Notes under the pieces: model-generated
Seen by the model: only the letters and a program-made list of their open reading frames with translations
What the model was told of the DNA's origin: nothing
Databases searched by the model: none
Translations under genes and position numbers: made by a program
Origin: a virus
Lineage: Duplodnaviria; Heunggongvirae; Uroviricota; Caudoviricetes
DNA: 41,649 nucleotides
Direction: 5' to 3' (one strand)
IMG/VR virus record: IMGVR_UViG_2660238349_000007
Shown: piece by piece, positions 3,482 through 11,261 of the stretch
Layout: each line of letters begins with the position of its first letter
How positions within the stretch are numbered: position 1 is the first letter of the stretch

Positions 3482-4084
3482 GTGCTCTTGAACATCATGA
3501 ATGTAAAAGATTTATCAATTACAACGGTTCTCTTGGCCGCCCTTTATTTTATGGCTTTTTCTTTTTACAAAGGATACAGCTCATTTTATGGATTCCCTGT
3601 AAGTTTTATTTCTATTGGGATTGAGGAAATAGTTAAGTTTTCTGTTATTGCATTAGGACTTTTGTGCACCTTAGTCGCTTTGCTGCATATTGATACTGAA
3701 GAGAAGAATATTCCATGGGGGGTGTATTTATTTTTCTTCATTTTGGCCTCTTTGCTTTCATACTGGACAATGTATTTATATGGCGGTAGCTCATACCTTT
3801 ATGAAAAATCCATAAGGGATGTGGCTACCCAAGCAATACTATTGGGATTTATTAGCCCTATCAGTGTCAGGGCAGTATCTGTTTTTATTAGGAATGAATT
3901 TAGAATAAAAAACAAAACTCATGGGGTTATGTTTTTTATATCCATAGCAATGCTTCCTTCAGTCCTTGGGTGGGCATGGGCATACTTATCAGATGAGCCT
4001 CTTTTTTATTCTAAAAAATATGATGCTTATATTATCGAAAGCTATAACGGAAAATTTGTCTTGGGGAACTGTAAAAAAAAATAG
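3482..4084 (+). CDS. Hypothetical polytopic membrane protein (AT-rich moron, opposite strand to the surrounding operon)
   Basis: 200-aa ORF with four to five hydrophobic segments; visibly AT-rich; start uncertain (TTG 3482 or ATG 3497). Confidence 0.5.
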   Translation: MLLNIMNVKDLSITTVLLAALYFMAFSFYKGYSSFYGFPVSFISIGIEEIVKFSVIALGLLCTLVALLHIDTEEKNIPWGVYLFFFILASLLSYWTMYLYGGSSYLYEKSIRDVATQAILLGFISPISVRAVSVFIRNEFRIKNKTHGVMFFISIAMLPSVLGWAWAYLSDEPLFYSKKYDAYIIESYNGKFVLGNCKKK

Positions 4085-4213
4085 CTCTGAATTTATGAGT
4101 GTCGAAGGAATTGAGGGGAAATTAATTCCTGTAAGCATAAAAGAAACACAACAACTAAAAGTATGTTTTTTAAAAGCTTCTAAGCTCAAGAAAAATCGCT
4201 CAGAATGATTGTC

Positions 4214-4989: not shown

Positions 4990-7053
4990 TTAATCCTTAC
5001 GGTAGTGGTACGCCTCAAAACCGCCAGCGTTCAGTGGGATATCGGGTGCCCATTCGGGGTTAGTGGAGAGAAGCGCGGAAAGCGCTTTATCGTTGAAATC
5101 TTCTGTGTCAGGTGCTTCGGTGATCACCTCGTCGTGTACCGTCAACACAATGCTGTAACCGGCATCTTCGATAAGCGGCATGTTTCCGGCCAGAACGTCG
5201 CGGGCGGCTGCCTGGGTGACGTTCTCCACCAGCTTTCCGCCGTAGGTTTTGAGTCGTTGCCATTTACGCGAATAAGAGTTAACACCCATGTAGGTGATAT
5301 TTCCTTTTTCGATAACCGGAGACGGGTAGCATACAGCGCGTCCGGATGGTAGCTGTATGCGCAGCCACGCGCCATCACGTCGGATTTTAAGATAGCCGCA
5401 ATACAATGTTTTTTGCGGTGTGGCGATTGCTGTGCGGACGGTGCGCTCCAGTTCGTACCAGAAATCGCAGGTCGCCGGGTGCGCCCTGCGCCAGAGACGT
5501 TTAAGTGAGTCGCAGGCGATAAATACCCGTTCAGAAAGCCCGTAGGTTGACTTGCGTTTAACCGATTCGTCGTACCAGCTTTTCGCCTCGCGGATAACAT
5601 CGCGGGGAATGTTTGGTAGTGCGGCGTTCGCCAGCTCGTCGAGATCGAGACCGTAAACCAGTGCAAAAGTGATGAAGGCCGACACACCACCACCATAACC
5701 CAGACCGAGTTCCATGACTTTACCGATCTGACGCATGTGTTTATCAACATCATCTGGTGCAATATCGAAAGCTTTTGCATACGCCAGTTTATATAAGTCC
5801 GGACCCGTTCCGGCGTCGTACTCTCTGAATGCATTCAGTTTCCATTCTTCTCCCGCCAGCCATGCCAGCATACGGCCTTCAATGTTCGACAAGTCACTTA
5901 CCACCAGCTTTTTGCCTGTTGGCGCGATAATGCAGCCACGTAACGCTGAACTGGTTAGTTCCATGATATTGTCAAACAGCAGGTCTGCACATCCGGCTTT
6001 CAGTGCTTCGATGCCTTCGTCTATTTGTTCCTGTTTTAGTGAAGGGCGGGGAAGGTTCTGGGGCTGGAATAGCCGTCCGGCCCAACGACCGGTACGTGAC
6101 GCCCCGCAGAACTGTAGCGTACCGCGTAAGCGCCCGTCGTGGCTTACGCCTTTCATCAGTGCCTTGTATTTACTGGTGCTGGTAGTACTGGCCTGCAGGC
6201 GGATAGCCAGCAGTTCTTTCACGGCAGATGGTAAATCGGGGTCGGCAATACGACGTTCCAGAGTACTGCGTTGCATGTCTGGTAGCTCCACACCGTAGGA
6301 TTCAACAATGTGCTTAATCAACGCGTCTCGTTGTGTGGCTGCCTGCACTTCGCCATCAGTCATTTCCTGTGTACGCTTTGCTAGGCGCTTTTGTTCCTGG
6401 TCTACCGCTTCGATCGCAGCGCGTGCGAGTTGCATGTCCATGCAGACGCCCCGGTCATTGATCTGCTGATCACGATGCCAGAGCGCCAGTTCTGTCCCCT
6501 GATAATTCCACTTCGGCAGACGTTTATAGACTTCGCGCATTGCCTCGATATCCAGTCCGGCGTAAGCAACAAAGCGCCGCCATTCTTCCGGGTGGGTTTT
6601 ACTGGTGGCCCGACGCAGTTTGCTGTTTTTCGGGCGTGGCTTACAGAACAGCTGGATCAGCGCTTTACCTTCTTTGTCCTTCGCTTTGTCTTGCGGGACG
6701 CCTAGTACTTCGCAGAGTTCCCCCAGAGACCCCGGGAGACCGTGCGCCAGCGCCTGCACCATCGTGTCGCGCCAACGTTCGACTGGCGGTGCCAGTCGCG
6801 GCATTGCATAACGCAGAACGGTGCGGTCGAAGTGAGAGTTATGGAAATAAAGCAGGGTTTCAGGGTCTGCGATTGCTTCGTATAAGCCGTGTGGAATACC
6901 ACCACCGGCAGTGATATCCCACACGTTTACTGGCCCGTCGTTGATAGCCCATGCGAAAAGCATCACTTCAACGCCTTCGGCATACGCATGGGTACCGTTG
7001 TTGATCGGAATGTCACAATAGGTTTCCAGGTCGCCCCATAGTATATTGGACAT
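4990..7053 (-). CDS. Family-A DNA polymerase with N-terminal 3'-5' exonuclease domain
   Basis: 687-aa ORF; N-terminal exonuclease-like region (WGDLETY…) and C-terminal family-A palm motifs (…[12 protein letters not shown]…, …LTVHDEV…); GAGGA RBS. Confidence 0.88.
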
Positions 7054-7114
7054 AAAATATCCTCATATGGTATATGGTTAAATGCTAGATATCATGAATT
7101 AAAGGAGACAACTA

Positions 7115-7804
7115 ATGACTGTGGGTAATAAGAGACAGCCTAATGGATTACCTGAATATTATTGTCACCGTGGTAACGACATAAAAGATGCGATAGTTCG
7201 GGATTTTATTATTCAGCCTGTTGCACACCTGAAACTTATTACTGGACAAACTAAAACCAGTTATTCCGGTTATCCGTTAACCGATCAGTACTATTGTTTT
7301 TCATTTAAAAAACGCTCTGATGAAAATTGTACAGGGGCTTTTTTCTGTGGTAGAGATGTTGCAAAGGATTTCATTCGGCGTATCGGTTGTACAGAGCTGC
7401 CGTTATTTAATCCTATGAAATCGGATACCAGTGCAGCAATAGAACGTTCCGGTTCTGGCTCAGGTAGTTCTGGTATTACTGTCAAGCCAAATGCTGACAA
7501 AAAGCTATTTATAGACGCAGCTCGTCTGTTAATGACGCTGTGGGATTCAACAAGTAAGGGACAAACCCCACTGGCGTCGGTTCTTAATGAAGCAATTTCT
7601 GGTGGTATAGATAAACCTCCAGAAATTAGACATGTAGTGGCGGTTAATACAATGTTGGGTAACACAAAAAATACTTTAACTGGTTTGCTGGATAAAGCAA
7701 GAGCGAAGTATCCTGATGTGTTATTCAGAGATTTTGATTTCACGCCTCTTAACGAGATTGTAAAACGTTCAAAATCATATAATAAGCATCCCCCTTGTTA
7801 TTGA
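7115..7804 (+). CDS. Hypothetical two-domain Cys-rich protein (moron on opposite strand)
   Basis: 229-aa ORF with strong RBS AAAGGAGA; Cys/His-rich N-terminal half, SGSGSGSSG linker, helical C-terminal half; AT-rich compared with flanks. Confidence 0.5.
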   Translation: MTVGNKRQPNGLPEYYCHRGNDIKDAIVRDFIIQPVAHLKLITGQTKTSYSGYPLTDQYYCFSFKKRSDENCTGAFFCGRDVAKDFIRRIGCTELPLFNPMKSDTSAAIERSGSGSGSSGITVKPNADKKLFIDAARLLMTLWDSTSKGQTPLASVLNEAISGGIDKPPEIRHVVAVNTMLGNTKNTLTGLLDKARAKYPDVLFRDFDFTPLNEIVKRSKSYNKHPPCY

Positions 7805-8439
7805 GTATCAGACACTGTATTGGTAGGAAGGCCTATCATTTCATTTAATGTCTCTCGATGTACTGCTGGTGCTAAAGGGACTGGCGGTGCGTCTGTTGGA
7901 AGCAGTTCTTTAGCTTCGGGCCATACATCCAGTAATCGTTTTACTGTCCGAACTTTATTTAGAGCCGCGCTGACGTTCTGTATGATTTCGGTTTCATCAC
8001 TTTTAATTTGTGTGTAGAGAGCATCAAAGCTATAAAACTCCGTTACCAGAGGATCTTCGCCAAGTAGAGTAAATTCTGCAGGTGCTATTTTATTAATATG
8101 CTCGGGGGCTCCTGATTCATAACCTCTGTAGTTGCCATTGAAATAAATGTTTGCTCTGGCTCCAGCCAGATTGAGATATATGCAGCAATCTTTTCGAATT
8201 AAAGAACTATTGGTTTTTAATGAATCAGGGATTTTTGTTACCATGGATTCAATCTTTTTTATATTTTTTAATATTTCAGCTTCTTTCTCTACGCCCCCGA
8301 TAGCTGCAAGCCGAACACGTTCGGCCCATTCAACACGAGCAGCTCGTAGTGCTGATTTACGTTTGGGGATACCCGCTTTCTCAAGTGCGTTATTGATGAT
8401 TTGAGTTTTAAGGTGATTAGTTAATACGGGCTGTGACAT
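7798..8439 (-). CDS. Hypothetical protein
   Basis: ORF in the early-left operon; start trimmed to MSQPVL with GAGGGA RBS; no recognisable motif. Confidence 0.5.
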   Translation of the reverse strand: MSQPVLTNHLKTQIINNALEKAGIPKRKSALRAARVEWAERVRLAAIGGVEKEAEILKNIKKIESMVTKIPDSLKTNSSLIRKDCCIYLNLAGARANIYFNGNYRGYESGAPEHINKIAPAEFTLLGEDPLVTEFYSFDALYTQIKSDETEIIQNVSAALNKVRTVKRLLDVWPEAKELLPTDAPPVPLAPAVHRETLNEMIGLPTNTVSDTQ

Positions 8440-8490
8440 TATTCTTTCCCTCATGAGATACCCCAGCACGTAGCTGGGGGATGAATATTT

Positions 8491-9039
8491 TTAAATTAGT
8501 GCTTCAGCATCAGCACCTTCGCTGATATCGTCGAAATCGTCAGCGCTTGCCACTCCGCCGCCAGCGAATGCATCGCCGTCTCGCAGGAACTGGACTCCTC
8601 CGAGTGAGGCATTAATGCGTTTACCGAAATTATTGTCCTGTGCCCAGATATCGATAACGGCGTTTACATAGCACCCTGCATAGGGACGTCCATCAGCCTG
8701 AATTAGTGGCGAACGATCGCGATCAAGAACAGCTGGGCGCGCTTTGTTAGCAGCGTTCAGGAAGAAATTGCCGGGAAAGCCTTCATACTCTGCTTTTTCA
8801 TCACCATCATGCAGGCACAGATTGAGTTTTTTCTCCAGCTGGTTATAAATGGACTCCCACTTCTCCCCCCATTTTTCCTTCGCTACCTGCTTCATAGCTT
8901 TACGGATTTCTTCCAGTTGTGGGTGTTTGGGTGACATTAAAAATACTGCGGAGAAACGTGGATCGCCTTCGCCGTTTACTGTTTTAGCTTCAAACAGAGA
9001 CGGGAAGGCCAGACGAACATTGTTCAGCTTCAGTTTCAT
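8491..9039 (-). CDS. Phage SSB-like protein (DUF2815-like)
   Basis: 182-aa ORF with acidic C-terminal tail (DDFDDISEGADAEALI) typical of SSB partner-binding tails; sits beside the DUF2800-like nuclease. Confidence 0.55.
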   Translation of the reverse strand: MKLKLNNVRLAFPSLFEAKTVNGEGDPRFSAVFLMSPKHPQLEEIRKAMKQVAKEKWGEKWESIYNQLEKKLNLCLHDGDEKAEYEGFPGNFFLNAANKARPAVLDRDRSPLIQADGRPYAGCYVNAVIDIWAQDNNFGKRINASLGGVQFLRDGDAFAGGGVASADDFDDISEGADAEALI

Positions 9040-9054
9040 GGGTATTTCCTTAAA

Positions 9055-10356
9055 TCAGATGAGGTCTGCGGTTAGCGTATCGTCGGATACGTCGTCGAAA
9101 TCATTTACAGGGTTGATATTGAGTGCGGGGCGTGGGTCTGACTCGGGAACGACGGTGGGTTTACCATCAGCTCGTGTTATCAGTGCCTCGACTTTTGACC
9201 AACGGCGCGGACTGGCCTTTTTGATAAGTTTTTCGGCTTTTGTGGGACTAATAAGTTTAAAGTCGAATACTTCTTCAGTTTTGTACCTGAACTGGTCCTT
9301 CAGAAGTGCGCGAGCTGCCTCTTCATCAATCCAGGCCCGGTTACCTTGTTTTCCTGTTACCAGTTTAAACCCCGGTACCGGATGTCCGGCATTGAGTTCA
9401 TTGTGAACCCGGTCCCGTACTGCCTTTAGCCAGGATTCAATAAAGTCGGCCTGGCTATAGATCTCCGCAAGCTGCTCAATGGTTAACAGAGGTACACGTG
9501 CACTGGCATTGGTGATTATTTCGCTGACAGGCTTTGTCAGATCTTCAAAATCGCTGGCCGCTGTTTGTAAATGCTGCATTTTCTGGGCAGTGCAAATAGC
9601 TTTTGCTTTACAGAAGCGGCACTGTTTTTCTCCAGGTATGAAGTTTTCCAGCGGTAGTGTCTCAATGCCTTCGCATTCAGCAATATTGAGAACAAGGATC
9701 GCACTGGTTGCGGCCTCCTGTGCCCGTTCACCGAAAGACTGAAGTTCCTGTACGGTTAACGACCATTCTGAAACGTGGTTGAGCCTTGGCTGGTGAATAA
9801 ATAATCTTACAGTCTCAAAGTCATACAGCATGCTGAATTGTTCGAGCGCACCCAGAGCATACAGTTGTAGTTGCTCATTTTGTTCTGCATCAATGCGGAC
9901 GCCTTTGCCATATTTCAGGTCGTGGATTTGTAATTCGTTACCCGCGATGATTATGCCGTCGGCAGTTCCGAAAGATTCTTCCACACCCGTTATATGTGAG
10001 AAATCAACACGTTGTTCAACCAATAGTTCATTATTCTGTGCAAGAGTCCAGACCGTATCAACATACCGGCCAACGGCTTCGACCATTTCATCATCCACCT
10101 GTGGGCCAGATGTATCATCAGGATTTTCGCGAAGGGGGTATGAGCCGAGAAACATAGAAACATTGCATCCGGCGTAGTGTTCCGGATGGCTTTGCCTGTT
10201 TCGTAGAACTTTTTCAGCAAGCGCGTGCGCTGCAGTGCCCTCGATTGCAAAAGTTGTTTCTTTATCCGGTTGTGTAGCCTCCAGCGCCAGACTTCCTGGG
10301 CAGCGCATCCATCGATGCGCTGATGATGGAGAAAGTTGTGCATGAACGTCTGGCAT
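9055..10356 (-). CDS. PD-(D/E)XK / Cas4-like nuclease (DUF2800-like)
   Basis: 433-aa ORF; N-terminal [14 protein letters not shown] and a C-terminal Cys cluster (CRFC…C) match the RecB/Cas4-type nuclease pattern. Confidence 0.65.
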
Positions 10357-10358
10357 GA

Positions 10359-11261
10359 TTAACCCTCCAGTGCTTTTTCAGCCAGGGTGATTACTTCAGC
10401 GAGATTTTCATCCGTTACTTCACCAAGTTTCCTGGCTCCCTGTTTTTCCAGAATTGCAATAGCTTCTGCCCGGTAACCCCCTTTTGCTAACTGGAGGATC
10501 AACCCTTCAGCTTGTTTGCGTAGTGCCGCGAAATCAATTGTATGGTCATCTTTGGCGTCATTATTCTGGCTGGAATTTGCTGCGTCTCTGCGTGCAAATT
10601 CTTCCTGCAGCTGAAGGTACTCAACACGGTTGATCTCGATATGGCCTTTTTTCAGCATCTCGTTCAACTTGCGTAAGGTGTGGAGTTCACTGGCTGCTGT
10701 GCCGGATACATTTTTGACGTAAAACGGCCCCGTGCGTTCTCCATCTTTGTTACTGGCCTTTTTCGGCTTAACTTCATCACGCCCATCCGCAGGTGCATCA
10801 AGTAGCTGCTCGGCAAAAGCACGCCGCTCGCCGATGGTTGGCAGGTCGTCCCAGAACTTAAGGATGTTACGGGACAGGTCCAGGAGAGCTGGTTTAAGCA
10901 GCGCCCTGGCTCGTTTGACGCCCTGCAATGCGCTGTCGAGAGCATCAATCTGAACTACTCGTTTATCGCCTTCAGCATCACGGTAGGCAACAGCACGTTG
11001 CAGCATGTCTTCTGTGATAGGGGTGGCTACCGGGTAGAAACCAGCCAGTGCGATAACGTCGCTGAACTCCAGATCATCCAGTGTCATTGCCGCTGACATA
11101 TTTTCAGTTTCAGTTGCTGTATCCCGACATTCCTGCACTCGTGAAATCGTGTCAGGATGCATAACAATACCTGATGCCATTGTGCGGATAAGACGTTCAA
11201 GCAGCGCATTATGTTGTGCCAGAAGTTGATTATTAAGTTCGAGACTGGTTTCTAAACTCAT
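10359..11261 (-). CDS. Hypothetical early protein
   Basis: 300-aa ORF, codon usage consistent with neighbours; translationally coupled to the upstream small ORF (ATGA overlap). Confidence 0.5.

Follow-up and report, generated by a model that had tools for sequence, protein, structure and literature searches.

What is an AT-rich gene on the plus strand doing in the middle of the minus-strand early operon of a temperate phage, and what might its product contribute? This question is raised by positions 7115-7804 of IMG/VR virus record IMGVR_UViG_2660238349_000007, a stretch of 41,649 nucleotides (hereafter the window) which is an Escherichia coli prophage, 99.9% identical over 29 kb to the FDAARGOS_144 prophage whose integration site lies beside yfhL. 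An earlier note, made without database searches, had taken the gene for a moron encoding a protein with a Cys/His-rich N-terminal half and of no recognisable family. We demonstrate here that the gene is mobile cargo of a polymorphic prophage slot and that its product belongs to the uncharacterised family PF27729. Our leading reading, which we hold tentatively and at slightly less than an even chance, is that the gene is a moron expressed in the lysogen and encodes a stand-alone, non-enzymatic anti-phage protein.

Results

The gene is genuine and under purifying selection

The open reading frame at 7115-7804 (plus strand) starts with ATG, encodes 229 amino acids and, as the earlier note had described, has its own ribosome-binding site (AAGGAG at 7102-7107, 7 nt ahead of the ATG at 7115). 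Its product is identical to WP_000215799.1, annotated as 'hypothetical protein', and is assigned to Pfam family PF27729 (UCP028583). It is a real gene under purifying selection. A chance open reading frame is excluded because the close clusters match over the full length (17 clusters, 57-73% identity), about 430 clusters match the family profile, and the ratio of nonsynonymous to synonymous substitution rates (dN/dS) is low, at 0.13-0.16 among the Dickeya, Enterobacter and island orthologues. Between the E. coli copy and those same orthologues, synonymous sites are saturated while dN is just 0.19-0.36.

The gene is cargo of a replaceable slot in the early operon

Comparison by blastn with five related prophages or phages, whose polymerase genes are about 98% identical to that of the window, delimits a replaceable cargo slot at 7054-8490 (GC 0.38-0.44) which extends from the start codon of the polymerase gene to the stop codon of the DUF2815 gene. 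Homology to these relatives ends at 7045-7053, at the polymerase start codon, and restarts at 8490-8493, at the DUF2815 stop. The two backbone genes bordering the slot, both on the minus strand, encode a family A DNA polymerase (4990-7053) and a DUF2815/Enc34-type single-stranded DNA-binding protein (SSB; 8491-9039; PF10991, E = 2.4e-44). In UPEC 26-1, which also has the convergent Nmad5 gene of the window, homology ends at 7080, and in a variant with an 89-aa gene plus Nmad5 it restarts at 7825. Because of this latter restart we regard the target gene as a sub-cassette of its own (about 7081-7824), independent of Nmad5.

The prophage backbone is present in 158 of 5426 complete E. coli genomes, and 26 of these 158 carry the gene, in every case in the same slot and with at least 99.3% identity. 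Elsewhere the slot is occupied by genes for a 209-aa membrane protein (phage vB_EcoM-689R2; L001 4601-5230, plus strand), a 199-aa protein (L016 781-1380, plus), a 166-aa protein (L017 776-1276, plus), an 89-aa protein alongside Nmad5 (L002 2111-2380, plus) or a BRO-N protein (L018 824-1726, minus). None of the four plus-strand alternatives had a PADLOC match below E 0.01, and the two of them that were also scanned against Pfam had no match there. A divergent prophage (L009), with 57% protein identity and a polymerase gene of about 66% nucleotide identity, holds the gene in the same position and has DUF2303 after it in place of Nmad5. In Dickeya, Enterobacter and a small island the gene stands alone in the chromosome, and these copies have in common with the window a span of about 7020-7890, which takes in some 30 bp from the 5' end of the polymerase gene and 60-90 bp beyond the stop of the target gene.

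The base composition of the gene is likewise distinct, with a GC content of 39% (0.38-0.41) compared to about 0.55 in the polymerase gene and the flanks. The AT-richness observed earlier is thus borne out, although the low-GC island (about 7050-8450) extends over the convergent Nmad5 gene as well. We conclude that the gene is mobile cargo of a polymorphic prophage slot, because the slot has exact borders and different occupants in backbones that are 98% identical, only 26 of the 158 prophage-bearing genomes have the gene, its GC content is low, it is oriented opposite to the lytic operon and a conserved 5' region accompanies it. The same distribution bears on the possibility, which the earlier note had raised as a counter-explanation, that the product is an accessory replication protein working with the DNA polymerase, the Enc34-type SSB and the DUF2800 nuclease of the prophage. 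The gene does lie inside the replication module, and the divergent prophage keeps it beside the polymerase. A replication role is nevertheless nearly excluded, since 132 of the 158 E. coli prophages that share a near-identical replication module lack the gene; it is also on the opposite strand, differs in base composition and belongs to a family most of whose members occur in non-phage contexts with no polymerase nearby. We therefore consider this role very improbable.

A conserved upstream region, probably a promoter/operator, travels with the gene

Upstream of the gene, positions 7030-7114 (plus strand) form a conserved region that accompanies it and probably comprises a promoter/operator and a leader; its first part, 7030-7053, shares sequence with the opening codons of the divergent polymerase gene. 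Across 7030-7100 the Dickeya, Enterobacter, island and divergent-prophage copies are 65-75% identical to the window, whereas further upstream of 7030 the identity of the three non-prophage copies is only 29-43%. Given that 7030-7100 is conserved despite saturated synonymous sites and diverged sequence further upstream, we read it as a putative promoter/operator that moves with the gene. At its other end, the gene overlaps the convergent minus-strand Nmad5 gene by 7 bp, and a pattern scan picked out a weak terminator-like hairpin with a T-rich tail (7821-7848, plus strand), the hairpin itself spanning 7821-7838, 17 nt past the stop and inside the Nmad5 3' end. If functional, these features would provide the gene with a promoter and a terminator of its own.

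The product belongs to a widespread and uncharacterised family

The precomputed Pfam assignment PF27729.1 'UCP028583' covers the full length of the exact protein and of all listed homologues except P0227; a direct hmmscan of the protein against a Pfam copy without the PF27729 model gave no match. The protein is thus a member of a named family, contrary to the earlier impression, which nonetheless holds in substance as PF27729 is uncharacterised and membership gives no mechanistic explanation. A profile built from close homologues and searched against 1.84 billion representatives recovered 430 clusters (at 50% identity), 298 of them at E <= 1e-10. Nearly all are 200-230 aa long and align end to end. 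They derive from Gamma- and Betaproteobacteria, Bacillales, Staphylococcus and gut Firmicutes, and all are labelled hypothetical. The E. coli protein shares with them its size, its two-domain layout and the family motifs (CRG, PVAHxKL, LTDxYYCF, FxCG, LPLFNPL and VNT). The enterobacterial subgroup is distinguished by a 14-residue N-terminal extension, by Tyr rather than Cys or Asp at position 50 and by the tail ...KHPPCY, compared to ...SxF(G) in the rest of the family.

Sequence searches of Pfam, PHROGs, PADLOC, NCBIfam and the PDB returned no annotated relative of the protein, and no catalytic family was detected in Pfam, NCBIfam, PADLOC, the PDB (phmmer and profile) or by structure search. 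A tblastn search of 50,697 phage records found no homologue, the PHROGs contain no group covering the protein, and in IMG/VR there are prophage copies only. Literature searches for PF27729, UCP028583 and WP_000215799 found no paper on the family in the collection searched.

The protein has two basic domains and no evident catalytic site

An AlphaFold2 model built with a 50-sequence alignment has a mean predicted local distance difference test score (pLDDT) of 86.5 and a predicted template-modelling score (pTM) of 0.82, and consists of two folded domains joined by a disordered linker. The N-terminal domain (residues 15-104; 7157-7426, plus strand) is predicted to have an alpha-beta3-alpha arrangement, with a helix at 21-30, strands at 31-40, 58-66 and 73-79, a helix at 80-90 and a short edge strand formed by LPLFNP. 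The Gly/Ser/Asn-rich, low-complexity linker (residues 105-124; 7427-7486, plus) contains SGSGSGSSG, has a pLDDT below 50 at 105-118 and is part of a P100-N126 loop that is G/N/S-rich and ranges from 16 to 47 residues across the family. The C-terminal domain (residues 125-229; 7487-7801, plus) is modelled as a bundle of five to six helices (127-223) and has a conserved aromatic C-terminus. Two halves with this linker and a helical C-terminal half had been predicted from the sequence, and the model agrees with both. The comparison by AlphaFold and Foldseek proposed at that time has now been run; it yields a confident two-domain model and no significant solved relative in the PDB (best E 0.79). 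Small zinc-finger DNA-binding folds (PARP-1 zf-PARP, TFIIH p44, C1, RING) and the DUF151 domain (TM0160, PDB 1sj5) were considered as the closest known folds. Within the region encoding the C-terminal domain, positions 7594-7627 hold a near-perfect 16-nt inverted repeat (88% complementary, 2-nt spacer).

The residues invariant across 242 family members are for the most part aromatic or structural: Y59, Y60, F62, G79, F98 and P100, which make the N-terminal domain the richer in invariants, and N178 and F209 in the C-terminal domain. The Cys and His residues are conserved to a lesser degree (C17 in 91%, C78 in 86%, H38 in 82%, C61 in 38%), and C17, H38 and C78 are lost independently of each other in 9-18% of members. 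Position 50 is C (45%), D (37%) or Y (8%) and covaries with position 61 (C or I/V/L). We rejected a classical zinc finger, which is where the proposal of a zinc-binding N-terminal half had pointed, because the family alignment contains no CxxC/CxxH knuckles and the Cys/His losses are independent. A strict catalytic dyad is also disfavoured since C17, H38 and C78 are lost independently and position 50 is variable. Both domains are basic, with family median isoelectric points (pI) of 8.6 and 8.8 and a pI of 9.2 for the E. coli protein. Taken together, the mostly aromatic or structural invariants, the independent losses of C17, H38 and C78, the basic character of both domains (pI 8.6-9.3) and the failure to find a catalytic family argue for a non-enzymatic mechanism.

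Two further ideas about the N-terminal domain were considered. A BRO-N/pRha-like fold was tried on the grounds of a 'G.F.CG..AA..FL' motif and of the BRO-N gene that occupies the same slot elsewhere, and was rejected, as hhalign gave a probability below 1% (a weak test, with one BRO-N and one pRha/ANT target) and there was no Pfam match. The LPLFNPL motif is unlikely to act as a free docking peptide of the sliding-clamp type, given that in the model it forms an edge strand within the N-terminal domain.

Family members recur in defence islands and other mobile cargo sites

Of 25 independent contexts, about 13 place the family member within a few genes of a known or candidate defence gene, an informal count made without a genome-wide background. 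In three Paenibacillaceae (L026, L027 and L031; about 5140-10640) the family gene directly follows qatD of a QatABCD system (KAP ATPase, QatB, QueC-like, TatD). Together with QatABCD it makes up a block of 5.5 kb, 81-87% identical among these genomes, whose right border is the end of the UCP028583 gene, the downstream flanks being different; in one of the three, a gene for a STAND-TPR protein comes next. The gene is flanked in B. cereus by Gabija (GajA, GajB) on one side and a 1908-aa STAND NTPase on the other, and in Paenibacillus tyrfis by a DEAD-HIRAN helicase and a PLD protein; in a Neisseriaceae genome it lies downstream of CBASS Cap2 (E 3.6e-134) and upstream of an MkoC-like helicase. 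It is found near an AAA_15 and DUF4435 (PARIS-like) pair in a gut Firmicute, adjoins a HEPN protein in Hafnia, and adjoins a NucC-like nuclease and PDC-M14A in Billgrantia and a Methylotenera metagenome-assembled genome; in Enterobacter, LmuB is 5 kb away. On a metagenomic contig (L006 3660-5098) it lies within a type I restriction-modification locus, after genes for a HigB-like toxin and an HTH-M78 protein. The latter is a 372-aa fusion of HTH_3 and M78 (ImmA/IrrE-like), the gap to the family gene is 8 bp, and the layout appears operon-like and resembles peptidase-regulated defence modules.

SIR2 genes stand immediately downstream and convergent in the Dickeya chromosome (1056 aa; L004 7399-10569) and in the Pectobacterium plasmid pPA21A (509 aa; L039 6914-8443), which also carries ToxN. 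The two SIR2 genes differ from each other, and the adjacency may reflect chance inside defence islands or a pairing that recurs in Pectobacteriaceae. When 105 neighbours were scanned together with PADLOC, redundant GajA models dominated the output, which is not readable locus by locus.

Other members are carried by further types of mobile element. A 201-aa member is a cassette of the Vibrio cholerae superintegron, among toxin-antitoxin, acetyltransferase and TIR/SEFIR cassettes; one occupies, as cargo, the interval from gpS to baseplate J in a P2-like Xanthomonas prophage; another is cargo of a Bacillus integrative and conjugative element (ICE); and several are on plasmids. The staphylococcal plasmid copies lie among toxin-antitoxin and insertion sequence elements. 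Many S. aureus copies (H135-H143; P0210 cluster) are 113 or 85 aa long and hold the N-terminal domain only, beside full-length copies of 211 aa; the short forms may be pseudogenes or a stand-alone form of the N-terminal domain.

The repeated position of the gene at the end of defence operons suggests an alternative in which the protein is an accessory or regulatory add-on, that is, a 3'-end DNA- or partner-binding protein which modulates such operons, senses for them or protects them, and which in the prophage would act as a regulator of nearby cargo or of host defences. Five unrelated contexts (Qat, Gabija, CBASS, HTH-M78/HigB and the DEAD-HIRAN helicase) have it as their last gene, oriented alike and following a defence operon or defence-type gene at a distance of 8-200 bp, the Qat and UCP028583 genes move as one block, and a basic two-domain protein would suit such a role. 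However, no partner gene is constant across contexts, many copies are solitary and keep a conserved upstream region of their own, Pfam and further searches detected neither an HTH nor any other DNA-binding family, and the abstracts of QatABCD studies describe QatABCD as a four-component system. We consider this alternative rather unlikely. A conserved partner gene was also looked for directly and rejected, since the upstream genes of about 340 aa at two loci are unrelated and no neighbour is constant.

Genes neighbouring the slot and other features of the window

The left arm of the window is the minus-strand early operon, which encodes, from left to right, an SNF2-related protein, VRR-NUC, DUF4406, an ANR regulator, the family A DNA polymerase, Nmad5, DUF2815 and DUF2800, the last being a PD-(D/E)XK nuclease after the DUF2815/Enc34-type SSB. 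Beyond the operon lie a LexA-like repressor, a VapE primase and then the late genes. An Rfam scan of the window detected no RNA family.

The gene convergent to the target gene (7798-8439, minus strand), previously described as a 223-aa hypothetical, is indeed convergent and does overlap the target gene. It encodes an Nmad5-family protein (PF18757, E 1.5e-54; phrog_1965) of 213 aa from the ATG at 8439, and a length of 223 aa applies solely if the GTG at 8469 is the start. It is variable cargo of the same slot; most related prophages lack it, as does the divergent prophage, and it is frameshifted in UPEC 26-1. A functional link between the two genes was rejected, as the divergent prophage has DUF2303 in this place and UPEC 26-1 keeps Nmad5 with a different plus-strand gene. 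In a Dhillonvirus, a point mutation in nmad5 is reported to lead to phage escape from Tmn defence, and nmad5 was apparently toxic during a cloning attempt (PMC11846954).

The target gene is not, as had been supposed, the only plus-strand gene of the early operon. A second AT-rich open reading frame (GC about 0.35) lies on the plus strand at 3497-4084, between the SNF2 and VRR-NUC genes, and encodes a multi-pass membrane protein. Its homologue in FDAARGOS_144 (WP_021580418.1, 236 aa) corresponds to 3497-4207 of the window, where the frame stops early at 4084 (...GNCKKK* compared to ...GNCKKNSSEF... in FDAARGOS_144). The lone gap of the 29-kb alignment is presumably located in this frame, and the early stop could be a real frameshift or a sequencing error.

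Discussion

First, our comparisons place the gene within a familiar setting. Prophage morons and the defence hotspots of prophages and satellites, such as the old/tin-type cargo of P2, are well-known sites of accessory genes. The gene resembles such cargo in being an AT-rich, separately oriented single gene in a slot that varies between near-identical prophages, and a PF27729 member in the cargo site of a P2-like Xanthomonas prophage extends the likeness to P2-like cargo; the E. coli protein differs from catalogued defence proteins in having no sequence or structural similarity to them. The family is also linked to QatABCD, as the fifth gene of a co-mobilised block after qatD in three Paenibacillaceae, although most members, the E. 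coli copy included, lack Qat genes nearby, and none of the other contexts examined has them. Many cassettes of sedentary chromosomal integrons encode defence systems, according to one preprint (bioRxiv 10.1101/2024.07.02.601686). The 201-aa member of the V. cholerae superintegron is like the integron-cassette anti-phage genes treated in that preprint in being a cassette, whereas the E. coli copy is prophage-borne and not integron-borne.

Second, we propose that the gene is an accessory moron cassette which would be transcribed independently from a polymorphic slot of a temperate E. coli prophage. Its product, a soluble, basic, two-domain protein, would be made in the lysogen, where it may act as a stand-alone factor protecting the host against superinfection. 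The conserved aromatic and basic N-terminal domain could bind the nucleic acid or a replication protein of the invader without catalysis, and the helical C-terminal domain, held on its flexible linker, might serve self-association or the binding of a partner. Lysogen expression, the defence function and the binding mechanism are all offered as predictions from sequence, model and genomic context, and the support of that context for a role in phage resistance is indirect. We favour a defence role because family members recur beside defence systems in independent contexts and in other mobile cargo sites. It is also supported by the sister phage vB_EcoM-689R2 (ON470582.1), in which another cargo slot, to the left of the polymerase gene, holds a TIR-like PADLOC candidate defence gene (PDC-S35, E 1.3e-108; L001 1665-2426). 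This suggests that the prophage family has at least two cargo hotspots with defence-type genes.

Several observations weigh against this proposal. In a small sample of about 25 contexts, roughly half have no neighbour recognisable as a defence gene, and in the E. coli prophage the gene is flanked most closely by replication genes and Nmad5 rather than by defence genes. The protein has no significant match in PADLOC-DB v2.0.0 (best IetA, E 0.032, 12 bits) and was not found in the DefensePredictor supplements. The putative binding mechanism is drawn solely from charge, the conservation pattern and the absence of catalytic motifs. Finally, a consensus scan of the 5' region gave no sigma-70 match, and the terminator function of the hairpin at 7821-7848 is doubtful (RNA fold -9.1 kcal/mol, z -0.67), so that there is no convincing terminator. 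For the reading as a moron this means that the replaceable slot, the patchy presence and the distinct GC content speak for it, while a promoter and a terminator of its own are putative.

The contexts that show no defence neighbours lend themselves to a different explanation, in which the protein is a non-immune fitness factor of mobile elements, for example a modulator of the nucleoid or of transcription or a stress or maintenance protein, and the link to defence islands reflects general accretion at mobile-element hotspots. The staphylococcal plasmid copies among toxin-antitoxin and insertion sequence elements, often shortened to 113 aa, would be in line with such a role, as would the basic character of the protein. 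Set against this, the range of bona fide defence systems adjacent to family members across phyla is hard to put down to chance, and we judge a non-immune role to be unlikely, if still deserving of serious consideration.

A further alternative is that the protein shields its mobile element by neutralising a component of host defence. The carriers are prophages, plasmids, an ICE and integron cassettes, and the protein is small and seemingly of a non-enzymatic, binding type, like many anti-defence proteins. In addition, the Pectobacterium plasmid copy adjoins a gene with a zincin-like metallopeptidase domain, which we take, by loose analogy, to be possibly ArdC-like. Such a role is less likely than phage resistance because the gene is absent from phage isolates, with neither a homologue in the 50,697 phage genomes nor a PHROG, and is read in the direction opposite to the early lytic operon, not as part of it; moreover, family members are often embedded in chromosomal defence islands beside intact systems. 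We regard an anti-defence role as improbable. More generally, a gene that benefits the host or lysogen is favoured over phage counter-defence since the gene is essentially absent from sequenced phage isolates and has no PHROG. Considering all four alternatives, we tentatively rank defence against phages ahead of each of them, with a confidence that stays somewhat below one half.

Finally, the breadth of the family allows a wider and still more tentative proposal. PF27729 may be an unrecognised single-gene anti-phage family of broad distribution (Proteobacteria and Bacillota) which has a fold without a solved relative and no enzymatic domain, and which moves among prophage slots, integron cassettes, plasmids and defence islands, sometimes as a fifth gene on Qat, Gabija or CBASS loci. 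As it stands, the gene is a functionally unassigned case of familiar prophage moron or defence-island cargo, and a reasonable candidate for experiment rather than a surprise. If a defence role were confirmed, a family of about 430 clusters overlooked by defence catalogues would gain a function, and a small non-enzymatic protein with a new fold would join the known immune effectors or sensors. The slot between the polymerase and DUF2815 genes would then be a hotspot for mining cargo, with at least five other uncharacterised occupants. Even if the protein should prove to have a regulatory or an anti-defence role, the repeated occurrence of its gene at the 3' end of defence operons that are unrelated to each other merits explanation, in a family that occurs in pathogens such as clinical and Shiga-toxin-producing (STEC-named) E. 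coli, Vibrio cholerae, Staphylococcus aureus and Xanthomonas oryzae.

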